Shown: piece by piece, positions 23,261 through 58,389 of the stretch
Position numbering within the stretch: the first letter of the stretch is position 1
How the letters are laid out: every line of letters starts with the position of its first letter
Virus record (IMG/VR): IMGVR_UViG_3300011441_000007
From: a virus
Direction: 5' to 3' (one strand)
DNA length: 64,000 nt
Notes under the pieces: generated by a model
Seen by the model: only the letters and a program-made list of their open reading frames with translations
The model's database searches: none
What the model was told of the DNA's origin: nothing
Position numbers and translations under genes: made by a program

Positions 23261-23336
23261 GGTTTAGACTCCTTTTTCGGGTTCTTGTTGATTGTTATTG
23301 TATTTATTCGTTATAAGTTCCAGGTATCTAGCCACA

Positions 23337-23549
23337 TCATTCTTTCTCCCAGATACAAGCGTTTTGCTTCTGGACAAAAGTTTCTGCAACATCTTGATCG
23401 GCTCCGGTTTCATTCATTATTCTGGCTACTATCTCCCAATACCGTAGCGAATAAATCTCAAACTTGCGTGCGAATCTCGGGTCTGGTAGCGGGATCATAG
23501 ATAAGTTTTTGCGCCGTCTCCTCATCATTATGTTCCCGGTATGAGCCAC
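23337..23549 (-). CDS. hypothetical small protein
   Basis: 70-aa ORF. Weak evidence. Confidence 0.3.
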   Translation of the reverse strand: MAHTGNIMMRRRRKNLSMIPLPDPRFARKFEIYSLRYWEIVARIMNETGADQDVAETFVQKQNACIWEKE

Positions 23550-23676
23550 AGACTTTCATTCGGTGCCCAGTTAGTTGGTAAGCGAATAATATATTTTAAT
23601 CCAACTTCAGAAAAGTGAGGATTTCCACTATGATATGGGGATTGACCGGGACAAAAATGCCAAGTTAGGTTATAGA

Positions 23677-24054
23677 TTACCCACATTGTTGATCAGCCGC
23701 TTCTGAGTTTTTAACTGCTTGGTCAAAAAGCGTCAGTATTTCTTCATGGGTTCTTTCAGGTTTATCATTATATTTAACAAGCATACAGTCACTTAATCTA
23801 TTTGGAAACATGGGAAATGCAGACCAATAAGCATCATAAACTTCCTTATGACGATGAGGTGCAATTTCTCTTTGTAATTGATTTCTAGCTGTTTTCAAAG
23901 CACCAACAGCACAAAAACGAAAATTTGTTTCAAAGCTAATATAGTGACCCTTAATCCAATTTTCTGGATGTTCAATCAGCTTGCGAGCATTCTTGATTAT
24001 CGTTGTTCTGAAAGAGTCGGTCATTTTATTTCCTCCCTTTTCAGCGGTTTCCAA
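23677..24054 (-). CDS. KxHW...CxxGA family protein (paralog family member 1)
   Basis: Motifs HPENWIKGHY...FCAVGAL...YNDKPERTHEEILTLFDQA are shared with 31649..32017, 32010..32417 and, more distantly, 55161..55601. It overlaps the upstream DUF2384-like gene by 14 nt. Confidence 0.5.
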   Translation of the reverse strand: METAEKGGNKMTDSFRTTIIKNARKLIEHPENWIKGHYISFETNFRFCAVGALKTARNQLQREIAPHRHKEVYDAYWSAFPMFPNRLSDCMLVKYNDKPERTHEEILTLFDQAVKNSEAADQQCG

Positions 24055-24571
24055 GATAGCGAATGTACTGATCCACTATCTCTAAGTTTCCTTCTAGCAG
24101 CTTTTCTCTGGGTGATTTGTTTCCTAGTTCTGTGGCTTTCTGATCCAGCCAAGATATGATTCCTTTATCCTCTACAAAGAGTCCATAGGCATCACAGAAA
24201 ATGCGCAACAGAAGGCGCATTCTTTTACCTGTATCATCTTGCTCAATTGTATCGCCACGAGTGAATTTACCAAGATAACCAACAGATTCTTCAATCGTCG
24301 TAAAGCCTAACATTGTCGCAATATCAAGATCAGAGAAGTTCCAATCTCGCGCGCAACGTACCAGCAACTTTGGAGCACCATGTTCGGGCTCATGTAATGT
24401 TCTGTTATTTAAGCGATCTATCTCATCACAAAGATCATAAACTAAACGATGAGGTTTATCACTCCAATCATAACCAAGCGACCCCATCTTGCCTTCTCCA
24501 GACAGCGCTTTGCGATAGTCGTCAGTTGTGCTTCCGAACCGCATTGGCATTTTCTTTTTCTCCAAGACCAT
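24041..24571 (-). CDS. Xre-HTH / DUF2384 (MbcA/ParS antitoxin-like) domain protein
   Basis: The C-terminus IISWLDQKATELGNKSPREKLLEGNLEIVDQYIRYLG fits the remembered DUF2384 toxin-binding-domain consensus (WL..pn..Lgg.sPl.ll.t..G...V...L.ri..G). An HTH-like segment lies upstream. The start is set at an internal Met; the ORF is open to 24658. Confidence 0.45.
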   Translation of the reverse strand: MVLEKKKMPMRFGSTTDDYRKALSGEGKMGSLGYDWSDKPHRLVYDLCDEIDRLNNRTLHEPEHGAPKLLVRCARDWNFSDLDIATMLGFTTIEESVGYLGKFTRGDTIEQDDTGKRMRLLLRIFCDAYGLFVEDKGIISWLDQKATELGNKSPREKLLEGNLEIVDQYIRYLGNR

Positions 24572-24728
24572 CTTTGAAGTTTTTAAGAAACGATACAACT
24601 TGTCACGGTAACAGATATCCAAAATGAAATAATGTGGATTTGAACCTCCTGATACCATTCAAAATATCGTAACACAATTTCATGTGCTGTTTCAGGCTCT
24701 AGATAAAGGAGTAGTTTGTGCATTGGTT

Positions 24729-26531
24729 TTAGGCGTTCAGAAACTCTATATCTGCGTTGATGCCCGCTGGCTCAATACCAAGGATTGTGTTCTGAGCAGC
24801 TTTGATATCCATGTCTTTGGGCCGAGCATATATTCTTAGACTACCTTCATCATAGCTGTCAATGATAAAATTCGCTAGTGTGATTTTTCCCATCTTATAA
24901 TCAATAGTTCCAATATTTCGTATTGTTGTATAGTTCTTTCCATCATTCTTTACAATGCGAACCACACCATTACCATCATCTGCTAAAGTTACTACTTGAC
25001 CATTAAAGCGAAAAGCAGAAGACCTAATGGTAGTTAAATCATCAATTGAATAAGTGTTTTCGGAATGAGAGAAAGAATCATCCAGTTCAGTTGCAAAGTT
25101 TACTACCATATTTTGAGGTGTTGCAAGTAATGGAGTAGTTTTCTTATAGATTTCTAGTTTCGTAATATTAGAAATGATAGAAGGATCAACTGAATTGATG
25201 ATATCTATTAGTGTAGAAGATCGCAAAACAACATTGAAGTTATTGAGTGATTCAAGATGATAATCATTGATTGCTGAAACAACGATGGTTCTGATGTTCT
25301 CTTCTGAGATGCTAGAAATATTGATATTATAGCGAACTAAAGTATCAACTAAAACATAAGTGAATTCAGGTTGAACAAAGATAGGTTTAATTGATAGATT
25401 GCAACGCCGTTTGAGGAAGTTGTAATATTCAGTCTTTTTGGAATCGGGAAGACCATCAGTATCAGCAATGTCAACTGAAACGAAGATTTTACCAAAGCGC
25501 GGAGGGTCCACATCTTCTCCCCCGAAAACTGCAACCGCTGTAATTTCTGGAAACTTCTCTCTCAAGAGGACTTCAGCATCTTGAGCAATGACAAGCCTTT
25601 CTTGAACTTGGAAATGACGAGGGGCAATGAATTTAATGGACTCATTCGTTTCAGGGTCAGAACCACCAGAAGAAATAGACACAATTTGCACATTTGGGGA
25701 ATTTGTGAGTTCCCCCGAAATGCCAGTCGGATCAAAGTTAATTGTGAAATGTCGTGCTCCAGCAGCTTTTGGGCCTTTAGTAACACGATAATCAAGAATA
25801 ACTGTTGAACTGGCTTTAGGTTTTTGACCAATTATACCATTACCAAAAAGAACTTCATAGAAACCAGCTTCGGAAGCCTGTAGAAAGAAGACTTTAGAAG
25901 TTGCGCCCAAATCTAAGAGCGTTGTGGCTAGAGTATATTTCTGACCAATACTTGAATTATCCTCAAAGACAACTACCGAAAGACTTTCAGTGTCAACATT
26001 TTTATTGGTAATTCTGAATCTTTCATTTTCAATATTATGAGTAATGACATAGGAATCTTTCAAATAAACTCCCTCATATATATCTGTTTCAAAAGAGAAA
26101 GATGTATTTGGAGATGCAACTATGATTGTTTCAGGAATAGAAAAAATAAATGATTCATTTTTAATAAGAGTAGAGAAAGAGGAGCCCTTAGGTACGATGT
26201 AGGGCTGAGTTTCGCTTGTAGCCTCAAATGTGACGGTTATAGTGGCCTTTGGTGAGCGAGCCGAGCGGGCCGTATAGTTCAAATCCTTGGCATGGGAAAG
26301 GATAGAATCACGAAGTTGAGCAGAATCCAGAAAAGACTCGGCAACGTTCATGTTTAGATAGAAAGCATTCTTTTGGGTATTGATGGCAAGAAGGTCCAAA
26401 AGCACAGCCATGGCCGAACCTTCAAAATCATAGTCTTTGAAAATAGATTGATTCCTAAGGAATGTCTTAAGAGCATTTCTTTGTAGATCAAAATCTAGAT
26501 CAATGAGATTTAGAGAACTATTAGATGGCAT
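24729..26531 (-). CDS. baseplate wedge protein, gp6 / baseplate-J-like
   Basis: 600-aa ORF immediately downstream of the gp25-like gene (conserved gp25-gp6 synteny). Size is comparable to T4 gp6. Confidence 0.55.
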   Translation of the reverse strand: MPSNSSLNLIDLDFDLQRNALKTFLRNQSIFKDYDFEGSAMAVLLDLLAINTQKNAFYLNMNVAESFLDSAQLRDSILSHAKDLNYTARSARSPKATITVTFEATSETQPYIVPKGSSFSTLIKNESFIFSIPETIIVASPNTSFSFETDIYEGVYLKDSYVITHNIENERFRITNKNVDTESLSVVVFEDNSSIGQKYTLATTLLDLGATSKVFFLQASEAGFYEVLFGNGIIGQKPKASSTVILDYRVTKGPKAAGARHFTINFDPTGISGELTNSPNVQIVSISSGGSDPETNESIKFIAPRHFQVQERLVIAQDAEVLLREKFPEITAVAVFGGEDVDPPRFGKIFVSVDIADTDGLPDSKKTEYYNFLKRRCNLSIKPIFVQPEFTYVLVDTLVRYNINISSISEENIRTIVVSAINDYHLESLNNFNVVLRSSTLIDIINSVDPSIISNITKLEIYKKTTPLLATPQNMVVNFATELDDSFSHSENTYSIDDLTTIRSSAFRFNGQVVTLADDGNGVVRIVKNDGKNYTTIRNIGTIDYKMGKITLANFIIDSYDEGSLRIYARPKDMDIKAAQNTILGIEPAGINADIEFLNA

Positions 26532-27532: not shown

Positions 27533-27742
27533 ATGAAAACTTTCATAGGGGTTGTCATTTATGTTAATATGATTGCTATAACTGTCGTGTTAGCGGGGCG
27601 TGAATATGGTCCACCTATTGAATCAGGTCAAGGTAAATTACAAGAATATCTGGCATATAGTGAATGTCGGCGCGAATTACCCTTCAAAGGAATATTCTGG
27701 CCTATCTATTGGACCTATCGTTTTTGGGATAAAGTTCTTTAG
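27533..27742 (+). CDS. small membrane protein
   Basis: 69 aa with a TM segment FIGVVIYVNMIAITVVLAG. Confidence 0.3.
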   Translation: MKTFIGVVIYVNMIAITVVLAGREYGPPIESGQGKLQEYLAYSECRRELPFKGIFWPIYWTYRFWDKVL

Positions 27743-28032
27743 TCATCCATCTTACAATAATCATTTGCCGCAGCTGGATCGGGAGCATGCACAATCACGG
27801 GGATTCCCGCGATAAAAACTGTGTGCCCTGTGTTGATCAACTGTCCATTACCATGCGTGCAAACATCACCTCTTACAGCCCATAGTTTGGAATTCACAAA
27901 AACTGAAGACTGACCGATAACAATTGTTTTTGCTCCACAAACTCTTGAATGCCCATGAAGATGATCCATTTTGGAATAGCAAAATGTGTTGTCAGAACCT
28001 TGTGCAGTTTTTGGATTGCAATGTAAACTCAT
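27739..28032 (-). CDS. PAAR-repeat spike tip protein
   Basis: 97 aa with PAAR-like motifs (AVRGDVCTHGNG; IAGIPVIVHAPDPAAAND) and Cys/His residues for Zn. Its stop overlaps the start of 27533..27742 on the opposite strand. Confidence 0.75.
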   Translation of the reverse strand: MSLHCNPKTAQGSDNTFCYSKMDHLHGHSRVCGAKTIVIGQSSVFVNSKLWAVRGDVCTHGNGQLINTGHTVFIAGIPVIVHAPDPAAANDYCKMDD

Positions 28033-28813: not shown

Positions 28814-29233
28814 GTGTGGGGAAAGAAGGGATCAATGAAACTTCGTGGTGAAACTGTGCTCATCGTAGAAGATGAGCCCATAATCGCTTTGGAAATTCAT
28901 GCCATCGCCAGTGAGGACGGCGCCAGCGTGATTGCTGCGCTATCTTGTAAAGAGGCAAAAAAAATGGCTACATCCTGTGATATTTCAGTTGCAATCCTTG
29001 ATGTCAGATTGGATAACGAGGATTGCACGGAATTGATTTGCCATCATTTAAGAGCGCGAAAAATACCTTTCATGTTCTACACTGGTTTTAATAAACATGA
29101 GATAATGTCAATGTGGCCAGATGTTCCAGTTATTGAGAAACCGGCTTCACAAACTTTAATTTTGGAAGGAATGCGGCAATTGTTGTTTTCCAAAAAGGTT
29201 AACGCAAACAGAACACAAAAGGAGCAAGTCTGA
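28814..29233 (+). CDS. stand-alone response-regulator receiver (REC/CheY-like) domain protein
   Basis: VLIVEDEPIIALEI...AILDVRLDN...FMFYTGF...IEKPAS carries all the conserved REC residues (acidic pair, phospho-Asp, Thr, Lys). It is the only plus-strand gene in a minus-strand block and looks slightly GC-richer. An alternative start lies at 28835. Confidence 0.7.
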   Translation: MWGKKGSMKLRGETVLIVEDEPIIALEIHAIASEDGASVIAALSCKEAKKMATSCDISVAILDVRLDNEDCTELICHHLRARKIPFMFYTGFNKHEIMSMWPDVPVIEKPASQTLILEGMRQLLFSKKVNANRTQKEQV

Positions 29234-31586: not shown

Positions 31587-31615
31587 TTGACAAAAAGGCT
31601 GTTACGATATATTAA
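31587..31615 (+). promoter_or_regulatory. sigma70-like promoter TTGACA-N17-TATTAA
   Basis: Perfect -35 with 17-nt spacer and a 4/6 -10. It is followed by GGAAGAGG and the ATG at 31649. Confidence 0.45.
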
Positions 31616-31648: not shown

Positions 31649-32017
31649 ATGACCCGCACCGAAATCTTACAAAAGACCAGAGAAATCCTTGCTGATGAAA
31701 AGCATTGGACTCAAAAAGCTTTCGTCATAACAAAGTTTAATGAAGGAAAACCGTTTTTTGTCTGTTGTCTTATGGGAGCCATGAATATGGCAATTGCCGA
31801 TAGCTATGCGCTATCGGTTAAGGGTCATCAAGAAGCGCAAGTTATATTGTTAAACATTATTAAGAAAAAATATGTCAAAGGCTATGCTAGTCTTATACCT
31901 TTTAATGATGACGAAGAACGCACCCATTTAGATATTATAGAATTGTTGGATGAGGGAATTGTAAAGTCCCTTGCAATGAACCATGATGAAGCTGCGAAGG
32001 AGAACCACAATGTCTGA
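31649..32017 (+). CDS. KxHW...CxxGA family protein (paralog 2)
   Basis: Has EKHWTQKAFV...FFVCCLMGAMNMAI...FNDDEERTHLDIIELLDEG. Confidence 0.5.
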   Translation: MTRTEILQKTREILADEKHWTQKAFVITKFNEGKPFFVCCLMGAMNMAIADSYALSVKGHQEAQVILLNIIKKKYVKGYASLIPFNDDEERTHLDIIELLDEGIVKSLAMNHDEAAKENHNV

Positions 32018-32417
32018 CCGCAAAATCTCGGAACGCACAAAAGTCCTGATGTGCGCCAAGAAGCTTATCAGTAAAGAGGAGCATTGGACTAAACACGCTT
32101 CATTTAGAACCGAATCTGGTCACACCGTAATAAGGAGGCTTGAAGATATAGTTTCATATTGTATGTCTGGTGCTATACAGAGAGCACATGGTTGGAATAC
32201 ATCATCTTATAATTGTAATGAAGCTATGGAAACATTTCGTTTTGTAGCAAACATTATGATACTACCAATAGCCACATTCAACGACAATCATAATACAACT
32301 CATACTGATGTGTTGAGAAAGTTTGATGAACTTATTGGACTTTCTTTAGCTGATGATCAAAAAACGGAGGGGAACCATGCAGGAACCAAAGTATTCGCGG
32401 CGGCAAACCATTGTTAA
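32010..32417 (+). CDS. KxHW...CxxGA family protein (paralog 3)
   Basis: Start at MSDRK. Has EEHWTKHASF...YCMSGAIQRA...FNDNHNTTHTDVLRKFDEL. Overlaps the previous gene by 8 nt. Confidence 0.5.
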   Translation: MSDRKISERTKVLMCAKKLISKEEHWTKHASFRTESGHTVIRRLEDIVSYCMSGAIQRAHGWNTSSYNCNEAMETFRFVANIMILPIATFNDNHNTTHTDVLRKFDELIGLSLADDQKTEGNHAGTKVFAAANHC

Positions 32418-54600: not shown

Positions 54601-55164
54601 TCAATTTGTGTGGTTTTCCTTTTGCCATCGGTTGATGATCATTTCTCTGAACTTTGACCAATCATACTTGATAAACGGCGCATACTTCTTGAGACGCGAC
54701 ATATAGAGAGGATTGTTCAGATTGAGATTATAATACTCCCAAATCTGTAGCTTGTCAACTAGAATTGTTATTGTTTCGGGAGAAATTTCTTTTCGTGTAT
54801 AGAGTTCTTGAATATATGGCAATCTTCCACCAGATGGTTGAAAATTGGTATCTAAATCTTGTTGTAGTTTACCCAAATCTTCTTTGAATACATAGGCCAA
54901 GGATTGTTGCCGGCGCTGCCAATCCAAATATCTATCTTCCGTCATATCTCTTATCCAACGGTCCTTATCAATGAGATTCGCTAGAAGAAAATTATGTGGG
55001 TCTTTATGCTTGGAAAGTTTTTGAAATGTGAATTTTTCTGGTCGCTTCTCAAATGAGGATGGGGATGCATTTATCTTTCCATTGTATTTAAAATAATCGT
55101 AAGCCTCATGATTGAAGTGTTGTTTCAAAGCGAGATAATCAACATATATCTCAAAGGAGTTCAT
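54601..55164 (-). CDS. helicase loader gp59
   Basis: YDYFKYNGKINASPSSFEKRPEKFTFQKLSKHKD parallels T4 gp59 (YDVIKYNWCMRVSDAAYQKRRDKYFFQKLSEKYK). Adjacent to gene 32 as in T4. Confidence 0.6.
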   Translation of the reverse strand: MNSFEIYVDYLALKQHFNHEAYDYFKYNGKINASPSSFEKRPEKFTFQKLSKHKDPHNFLLANLIDKDRWIRDMTEDRYLDWQRRQQSLAYVFKEDLGKLQQDLDTNFQPSGGRLPYIQELYTRKEISPETITILVDKLQIWEYYNLNLNNPLYMSRLKKYAPFIKYDWSKFREMIINRWQKENHTN

Positions 55165-55601
55165 AGTTCTAGCCGAACTTTCCCTTTTTTTATGAGTTTA
55201 GCGATTTCAGGAAACGGCACACTGGTATCGTTTGCATCAACTAGGCTGAATAATGCCTCATTATCATCGCTTGTATTTACTATTGATAAAATCAGCATAC
55301 CATTGTTATCAGCAAATCCAAGCCACTTCCTTACTTCATATGGTAACACTCCGGTAAGCTTTTGACCATTGGAGCCAATGTAATAATAAACGCCGCTAGT
55401 AGTATCCTTTCTCTTTCCGAGGTTAATTCCGTTCTCCATTGCCAATTCACAGGCAACTCCTAAACAGCAATAATACATAGTTTTTTCTTCTTCATAACAC
55501 AGGTATCTTCTACCTTGTTTGAATCTATTTGATTCCAAAGCATCAGCTAACAGTTTACGATTAGCTGCTGTTTCTTTCTTTGTATATTCTGTTCTGTTCA
55601 T
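55161..55601 (-). CDS. diverged member of the KxHW...CxxGA family (paralog 4)
   Basis: RYLCYEEEKTMYYCCLGVACELA and a C-terminal SDDNEALFSLVDA echo the family motifs. Confidence 0.35.
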   Translation of the reverse strand: MNRTEYTKKETAANRKLLADALESNRFKQGRRYLCYEEEKTMYYCCLGVACELAMENGINLGKRKDTTSGVYYYIGSNGQKLTGVLPYEVRKWLGFADNNGMLILSIVNTSDDNEALFSLVDANDTSVPFPEIAKLIKKGKVRLEL

Positions 55602-56005
55602 GTGTTTGTTTCATCCCATGGACGCGGATAGTTGTTGATATAGGCAAAGGCTTCCACATTTTCTGGCATATGCTCTATATGCCCGCGAGCAAACGCCACA
55701 TAACCTACCCAAGGTTGTTCATTTCTGATTAACGTTCTGACGAATTTGTTCATGCTGGCGCCTGTGGTCCAAACATCATCCACAATCAGCCATGTGGGTG
55801 CCCCAACGGTCACATAAGGCAAGAAAGCATCCCGCAGAGCCCAGCCGCCTGAAGGAACGCCATAGACCTGTCCAAACGCCCCAATCTTCACATGAGACGT
55901 ATGAGCGATGCAATCCCAATCCTCTTTTGTGAGGGCATCACACTCTATCTTCCAATCCAGCAACAAGCCGGCAGCGGAAGTGAATTGTCCAAGTTTGAAA
56001 AGCAT
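55598..56005 (-). CDS. phosphoribosyltransferase (type I PRTase) domain protein
   Basis: The PRPP-binding motif TWLIVDDVWTTGASM matches VLIVDDVLTTGGT. Confidence 0.55.
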   Translation of the reverse strand: MLFKLGQFTSAAGLLLDWKIECDALTKEDWDCIAHTSHVKIGAFGQVYGVPSGGWALRDAFLPYVTVGAPTWLIVDDVWTTGASMNKFVRTLIRNEQPWVGYVAFARGHIEHMPENVEAFAYINNYPRPWDETNT

Positions 56006-58313: not shown

Positions 58314-58389
58314 TGGCTCCTCAGGTAGGAATCGAACCTACAACCTCCACCTTAACAGGGTGTCTCTCTACCAATTGAGATACTGAGGA
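58314..58389 (-). tRNA. tRNA-Asn (anticodon GTT), CCA encoded
   Basis: Manual fold: acceptor TCCTCAG/CTGAGGA, D-arm TCTC-AATTGGTA-GAGA, anticodon loop CTGTTAA, T-arm GTAGG-TTCGATT-CCTAC, discriminator G, then CCA. One A·G mismatch closes the anticodon stem. Confidence 0.75.

Follow-up and report, generated by a model that had tools for sequence, protein, structure and literature searches.

Antitoxins of RES-type toxin-antitoxin (TA) modules, i.e., NatR (P. aeruginosa NatRT), MbcA (M. tuberculosis MbcTA), ParS, P. putida Xre (Xre-RES), and VPA0769, share a two-domain fold in which an HTH is joined to a DUF2384 domain. Orphan antitoxins are also found on phages, e.g., T4 Dmd, which is directed against RnlA and LsoA. 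In T4-like phages, AdfN (gp30.3) is an orphan antitoxin that serves in counter-defence against DarTG1 (PMC11257639), and chimalliviruses are reported to encode a DarG-like antitoxin (PMC13309987). Iyer et al. (2022; PMC9503650) state that prokaryotic immune systems make use of RES-clade ARTs, and they note complete RES-HTH TA modules on phages.

Here we describe a gene, X, on a 64-kb stretch of viral DNA (64,000 nucleotides; "the window" hereafter), whose C-terminal module (X-C) is predicted to have the two-domain fold of the RES-type antitoxins. Unlike NatR, MbcA, ParS, Xre, and VPA0769, X has no RES partner in the window, lies on a virulent T4-like phage beside baseplate genes, carries an extra N-terminal module (N-module) of ~50 aa, and scores by itself below Pfam and NCBIfam cut-offs. 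It resembles Dmd, AdfN, and the DarG-like protein in being an antitoxin homolog or mimic that occurs without a toxin in a variable accessory region of a lytic (T4-like) phage; however, it is of the Xre/DUF2384 type rather than of the Dmd or NADAR/macrodomain types, and neutralization would be by binding and not enzymatic. With the phage RES-HTH modules of Iyer et al. it shares the presence of a RES-type antitoxin on a phage genome, but those modules carry a RES toxin, whereas X does not and the gene downstream of it, A, is unrelated to RES. Gene A belongs to DUF6197 (Pfam PF19698; phrog_762), a family that is named in a single genome announcement in the literature searched, where PF19698 and phrog_762 are named in none.

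Genomic setting and limits of gene X

The window derives from a novel T4-like myovirus. Its gp6 baseplate-wedge protein, a 600-aa ORF (24729..26531, minus strand), is 37% identical to the counterpart in Caulobacter phage Cr30 and is neighboured by a gp25-like wedge gene and a GH25 endolysin gene. Megablast of the 11 kb around the locus gave no DNA-level match to GenBank phages, and several metagenomes were found to contain identical or near-identical contigs. By correspondence with one identical contig (L005), the phage also encodes, near the baseplate genes, a response-regulator receiver domain as a stand-alone protein (PF00072) and a protein with faint PAAR similarity; the window has a single tRNA gene:

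28835..29233, plus strand: receiver-domain protein (via L005)
27739..28032, minus strand: PAAR-like protein (via L005)
58314..58389, minus strand: tRNA-Asn (GTT), the sole tRNA of the window

An indel-prone accessory island lies 3' of gp6, and X is its first gene. Comparison of window positions 23300..24730 with L001 5632..6760, L109, and L111 revealed an indel hotspot just downstream of gp6, in which an HNH_3 endonuclease gene, 96-aa and 69-aa membrane ORFs, and a tRNA-Cys have been gained or lost while the genes flanking it are still 92-96% identical among near-identical phages. One relative contig has the HNH gene between gp6 and X. The parts of X are as follows:

24041..24550, minus strand: gene X, 169 aa (MPMRFGS start); ORF for a homolog of Xre-HTH/DUF2384 (RES-type) antitoxins that has an N-terminal addition
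24404..24550, minus strand: N-terminal module of X, ~50 aa, GSTTDDYRKAL.GEG..GSLGYDWSDKPHRLVYDLC; recurs in proteins with unrelated flanks and is lacking in the sister-phage ortholog
24041..24403, minus strand: X-C, residues 86-205 of the 205-aa ORF; Xre-like HTH and DUF2384 toxin-binding domain

An alternative ATG at 24571 would extend X to 176 aa. Since a relative with 96% identity (L111) has this ATG in another reading frame, X most likely begins at 24550 (MPMRFGS), the start from which the L109 and L111 orthologs are also called. The N-terminal module is 59-77% identical to segments of three other proteins (P0003-P0005), in which it occupies differing positions between unrelated flanks, and it also resembles a hypothetical protein of Microcystis phage Mae-JY02. 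Searches of Pfam and PHROG gave no match to it, and from these comparisons it looks like a mobile domain. The module has the consensus TTDDYRKA..GEG..GSLGYxWSDKPHRLVYDLC, and one of its occurrences is at L118 2501..2602. In a sister phage, the ortholog of X (P0002; 67% identity) is a stand-alone X-C of 124 aa, and a 69-aa membrane ORF takes the place of the N-terminal module. An exhaustive search for close homologs of X returned its own cluster and this sister-phage ortholog only, and a pattern scan of IMG/VR returned two contigs, both from these same phages.

X-C and the RES-type antitoxins

As a single sequence, X scored 15.0 bits (E = 0.024) against PF09722, which has a gathering cut-off of 24.5 bits, and it was likewise far under the cut-offs of TIGR02293 (E = 0.004) and NF049845 (E = 0.028); all three weak scores fall in the same region of the protein. 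The sister-phage ortholog reached 22.9 bits (E = 9e-5) against PF09722. When 1.84 billion representative proteins were searched exhaustively with an HMM profile built from X-C and P0002, 36 proteins were added at E <= 1e-3 (38 relatives in all). In the alignment of this family (37 sequences), PF09722 was matched by 30 members (best 2e-8) and the Xre-like HTH model PF20432 by four. Searched against PDB sequences, the family profile matched 6gw6_B (E = 2e-4), 8gug_B, and 8qnl_A, which are Xre, VPA0769, and NatR, while X-C as a single sequence matched nothing meaningful there. An AlphaFold2 model of X-C (pLDDT 93.8, pTM 0.86) was compared with the PDB using Foldseek, and the best 11 matches were to NatR, MbcA, VPA0769, and P. 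putida Xre; alignment to NatR extended over the full length (~120 columns) with a TM-score of 0.71-0.75. The model predicts that X-C is a complete Xre-HTH and DUF2384 antitoxin fold. Since the PF09722 matches of the family, the profile matches to PDB antitoxins, and the predicted fold all agree, we assign X to DUF2384 despite its own sub-threshold score. The original prediction that the gene 5' of the ORF at 23677 ends in a DUF2384 domain preceded by an HTH is thereby borne out; an HMM search with X alone did not reach threshold, and it is the family profile and transitive search that place X in DUF2384/Xre.

The nearest cellular relatives of X are linked to RES toxins: in each of the four sampled (P0029, P0030, P0033, and P0035), a RES gene (PF08808) lies 0-4 nt downstream. 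By tblastn and HMM search, no RES homolog was found within the 64-kb window, which is part of the phage genome, and the gene downstream of X is a DUF6197 gene and not RES. Since X lacks a RES partner in the window, it appears from sequence to be an orphan antitoxin that was captured out of a RES-Xre module of cellular origin. It is an antitoxin homolog without a toxin, carried by a virulent phage and under selection.

The RES-linked operons of these cellular relatives had two further features. An extra gene lies directly 5' of the antitoxin gene and abuts or overlaps its start in every contig examined; where complete, it encodes 235-240 aa with no Pfam or PADLOC match. In addition, the Xre proteins carry an extra N-terminal extension of ~100 aa. 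Such loci possibly represent a RES system of three genes. No long-form antitoxin of this subfamily turned up when IMG/VR was scanned with a pattern. Examples are the following:

L015 1779..3745: RES-linked cellular locus with the extra 5' gene
L016 511..2462: RES-linked cellular locus with the extra 5' gene
L010, L012, L013, and L014: further loci of this kind

PADLOC defence-system models matched neither X nor A-D, and they matched neither a RES neighbour nor the gene 5' of the antitoxin in the cellular operons.

Short relatives of X-C, DUF2384-like proteins of 100-102 aa, were observed at a conserved position between Toprim/AAA_25 primase-helicase and DEAD/ResIII helicase genes. The contigs are phage-like (Dam, CHAP), and one neighbouring gene contains an intein:

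L113 4001..4309: short X-C relative
L116 4001..4303: short X-C relative

Near these proteins in contigs of the L113/L116 type no RES gene was found, which shows that orphan copies recur in phages, and their replication-module setting keeps a regulatory role of the HTH open. X itself could conceivably be a phage transcription factor, in which the Xre HTH regulates phage or host genes and DUF2384 is reused for oligomerization or sensing with no toxin involved. The X-C model contains the whole HTH domain, Xre-RES antitoxins bind DNA (PDB 9r35), and the short X-like proteins in replication modules are not in an obvious anti-defence context. However, conservation among X and its relatives is highest in the toxin-binding DUF2384 half (W-L...P...G...V), four residues are inserted in the HTH region of X compared with the family, and no operator-like repeat was noted around X, where signals are no commoner than chance. 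We consider a purely regulatory X unlikely.

To assess selection, we compared X with its orthologs. The dN/dS of X was 0.16 against a close relative (L109) and 0.27 against the sister phage, with gp6 (0.06) as the reference; X is under purifying selection. These values bear on a further alternative, that X has no function and is what remains of a captured RES-Xre module after loss of the toxin, hitch-hiking in a variable island. Such a fate would be in keeping with an island that freely gains and loses an HNH gene, membrane ORFs, and tRNA-Cys, and in which A can be truncated, and with the rarity of X itself. However, the X ORF is intact in three diverged lineages, its dN/dS is low, residues near-invariant in the X-C family are all kept, and the C-terminal module persists where the N-terminal module and A have been lost. 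A relic is thus quite improbable.

DUF6197 genes and the X-A junction

Four ORFs of the window had been predicted to form a paralog family:

23677..24024, minus strand: gene A, DUF6197, 115 aa; PF19698, 48.5 bits, E = 1e-12
31649..32017, plus strand: gene B, DUF6197, 122 aa; PF19698, 50.5 bits, E = 3e-13; orthologs P0009 (99%) and P0012 (69%)
32010..32417, plus strand: gene C, DUF6197, 135 aa; PF19698, 42.4 bits, E = 1e-10; orthologs P0010 (94%) and P0011 (81%)
55161..55601, minus strand: ORF D, 146 aa; phrog_18067; not DUF6197; upstream of a gp59-like helicase-loader gene

A, B, and C passed the Pfam gathering threshold of PF19698 (24.6 bits), all matched phrog_762, and gave significant pairwise BLASTP scores at 23-29% mutual identity (A-B, E = 3e-8, 23%; B-C, E = 1e-8, 25%). 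Judged by these scores, the window holds three DUF6197 members whose relationship is real and far beyond chance. Their shared core of W, C-x2-GA, ND, and H is that of DUF6197; in an alignment of 25 DUF6197 sequences, W23, C38, N86, and D87 were invariant and G41, A42, H93, and D101 nearly so, and the core motif residues of A are kept in its orthologs. A shared motif of the KxHW...CxxGA type had been proposed; the core stands, but the quoted pattern is approximate, since ENW replaces xHW in A and the C-terminal (I/V)L.LFD.A is matched only loosely by B and C. The three genes are otherwise indistinguishable from DUF6197 at large, and what sets them apart is the presence of three such diverged copies in one T4-like genome. 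DUF6197 is helical, without a known fold, and in BFVD the predicted fold recurs in many phage proteins, the named ones all "uncharacterized." The family is large and widespread in phages and is often multi-copy. The junction of B and C is an 8-nt overlap, from the ATG of C to the stop of B (ATGTCTGA), with an AAGGAG ribosome-binding site 5' of C, so that B and C are coupled to each other, without an antitoxin-like neighbour; a pattern scan of IMG/VR for relatives of B found none. Tandem DUF6197 arrays of two to four copies, comparable to B-C, are common in other phage and prophage loci:

L062 3992..5588: tandem DUF6197 array
L067 3914..6311: tandem DUF6197 array
L079, L038, L055, L070, and L089: further tandem DUF6197 arrays

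ORF D was rejected as a fourth member of the family. It had no Pfam match, its BLASTP score was insignificant (E = 0.33), the HMM of 25 DUF6197 sequences gave E = 9.5, and the hhalign probability was 0.9%; a jackhmmer profile of D matched no DUF6197 protein, and PHROG places D in phrog_18067 and A-C in phrog_762. At the level that sequence comparison can detect, D appears unrelated to A-C, and the predicted family of four is reduced to A, B, and C. ORF D overlaps each of its neighbours by 4 nt (the gp59-like helicase loader at 54601..55164 and a 135-aa ORF at 55598..56005), contains a conserved YCCLGVACE motif, and has a sister-phage ortholog that is 62-65% identical.

Around X/A and B/C, promoters and terminators did not exceed the shuffled expectation, and the T4 late-promoter motif TATAAATA was not enriched. 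An exact 10-mer, GTTACGATAT, followed a few bases on by AATGG, occurs upstream of both X (24664..24673, minus strand) and B (31601..31610, plus strand); from the size of the window we estimate a chance expectation of ~0.1 exact copies. Since the related loci that we scanned, among them the regions 5' of X in the sister phage and L111, lack the 10-mer, it was not regarded as a regulatory element.

The ORF at 23677 had also been predicted to overlap the 3' end of X by 14 nt and, in the slot normally occupied by a RES toxin, possibly to form with X a novel TA-like or anti-TA pair. The stop codon of X is TGA 24043..24041 and the start of A is ATG 24024, the latter being the start used by gene callers in five public contigs, where A is 115 aa. 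Between them lies a spacer:

24025..24040, minus strand: 16-nt spacer between the X stop and the A ATG, AAAGGGAGGAAATAAA; strong Shine-Dalgarno, with a GGGAGG ribosome-binding site

Given this spacer and its strong Shine-Dalgarno, X and A do not overlap, and the 14-nt overlap was a longest-ORF artefact in which A had been extended to an in-frame upstream TTG at 24054.

If X and A were nevertheless a pair, the DUF2384 domain of X would bind the DUF6197 protein A in place of RES. The two genes are co-directional and 16 nt apart, an arrangement that five identical public contigs share with the window, and the order of antitoxin and then partner is that of RES-Xre modules; however, their linkage is not conserved across genomes. 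Among 85 independent DUF6197 loci taken from IMG/VR and GTDB genomes, none had a DUF2384-like ORF (X-C profile) or a RES ORF within 4 kb, and Pfam scans found PF09722 in 0 of 81 upstream and 0 of 82 downstream neighbours. The neighbours were instead accessory genes of varied kinds (HNH, endonuclease VII, methylases, Cro, YdaS, Lar, and Tad2-like), and the paralogs B and C also lack such a partner. Phages with 92-96% identity to the window have a membrane (TM) ORF of 96 aa interposed between X and A, and it is to this ORF that A is coupled, its ATG overlapping the ORF's stop (ATGA). In the sister phage, X-C is kept and is followed by tRNA-Cys and then by a remnant of A, residues 62-113 only (41% identity), which lacks the W/C/GA half.

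The predicted structure and the evolution of A also argue against a pair. A is predicted to be a small helical protein without an ART/RES fold. Its dN/dS was 1.05 and 0.87 against its orthologs (L112 and L109), values based on small counts that do not separate diversifying from relaxed selection. With X constrained and A near neutral, there is no sign of co-evolution between them. A TA-like or anti-TA pair is very improbable, and the predicted TA gene order stands only as an antitoxin gene followed by a small gene, without overlap; its appearance is due to chance adjacency in an indel hotspot and longest-ORF extension. A broader version, in which the DUF2384 of X was re-targeted from RES to DUF6197, X and A, joined in some relatives by the 96-aa membrane ORF, form a phage TA-like or effector-regulator module, and DUF6197 is a new partner class for Xre/MbcA/ParS antitoxins, is scarcely probable. 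The fast evolution of A and the frequent multi-copy state of DUF6197 suggest a role in host interaction or counter-defence.

Probable role of X

The reading that we prefer, and hold as a whole with moderate confidence, is that X is a captured orphan antitoxin that blocks RES toxins in counter-defence from within an indel-prone island, that A is an independent DUF6197 accessory gene and not a toxin, and that D is unrelated. Taken alone, X probably acts in counter-defence as a decoy for host RES toxins, a role suggested by its fold, homology, the RES linkage of its relatives, and its orphan status under selection. X would be produced during infection, and its DUF2384 domain would bind and block a host RES-domain, NAD+-degrading toxin that otherwise would abort the infection, in parallel with the phage orphan antitoxins Dmd and AdfN, while A would act as a separate accessory gene beside it. 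The original prediction had offered as its second alternative an anti-RES DUF2384 protein beside a small family with another role, and this fits all that was found (the X-C fold, the four RES-linked relatives of four, the window without RES, and purifying selection), the function being one that we infer. A decoy of this kind would be expected to act early; however, X is oriented like the late structural genes and has no recognizable early promoter, and X alone is under the Pfam and NCBIfam thresholds. In the literature searched, no direct demonstration of RES-Xre modules defending against phage was found.

The X-A locus also shows that longest-ORF extension and adjacency in an indel hotspot can mimic TA gene order. 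Since DUF6197 is uncharacterized, its three diverged copies here, one with a dN/dS of ~1, could serve as test material. If X neutralizes host RES toxins, Xre/DUF2384 would join the short list of antitoxins captured by lytic phages (Dmd, AdfN, and DarG mimics), and X would be indirect evidence that RES-Xre NAD+-degrading modules are natural abortive-infection defences.
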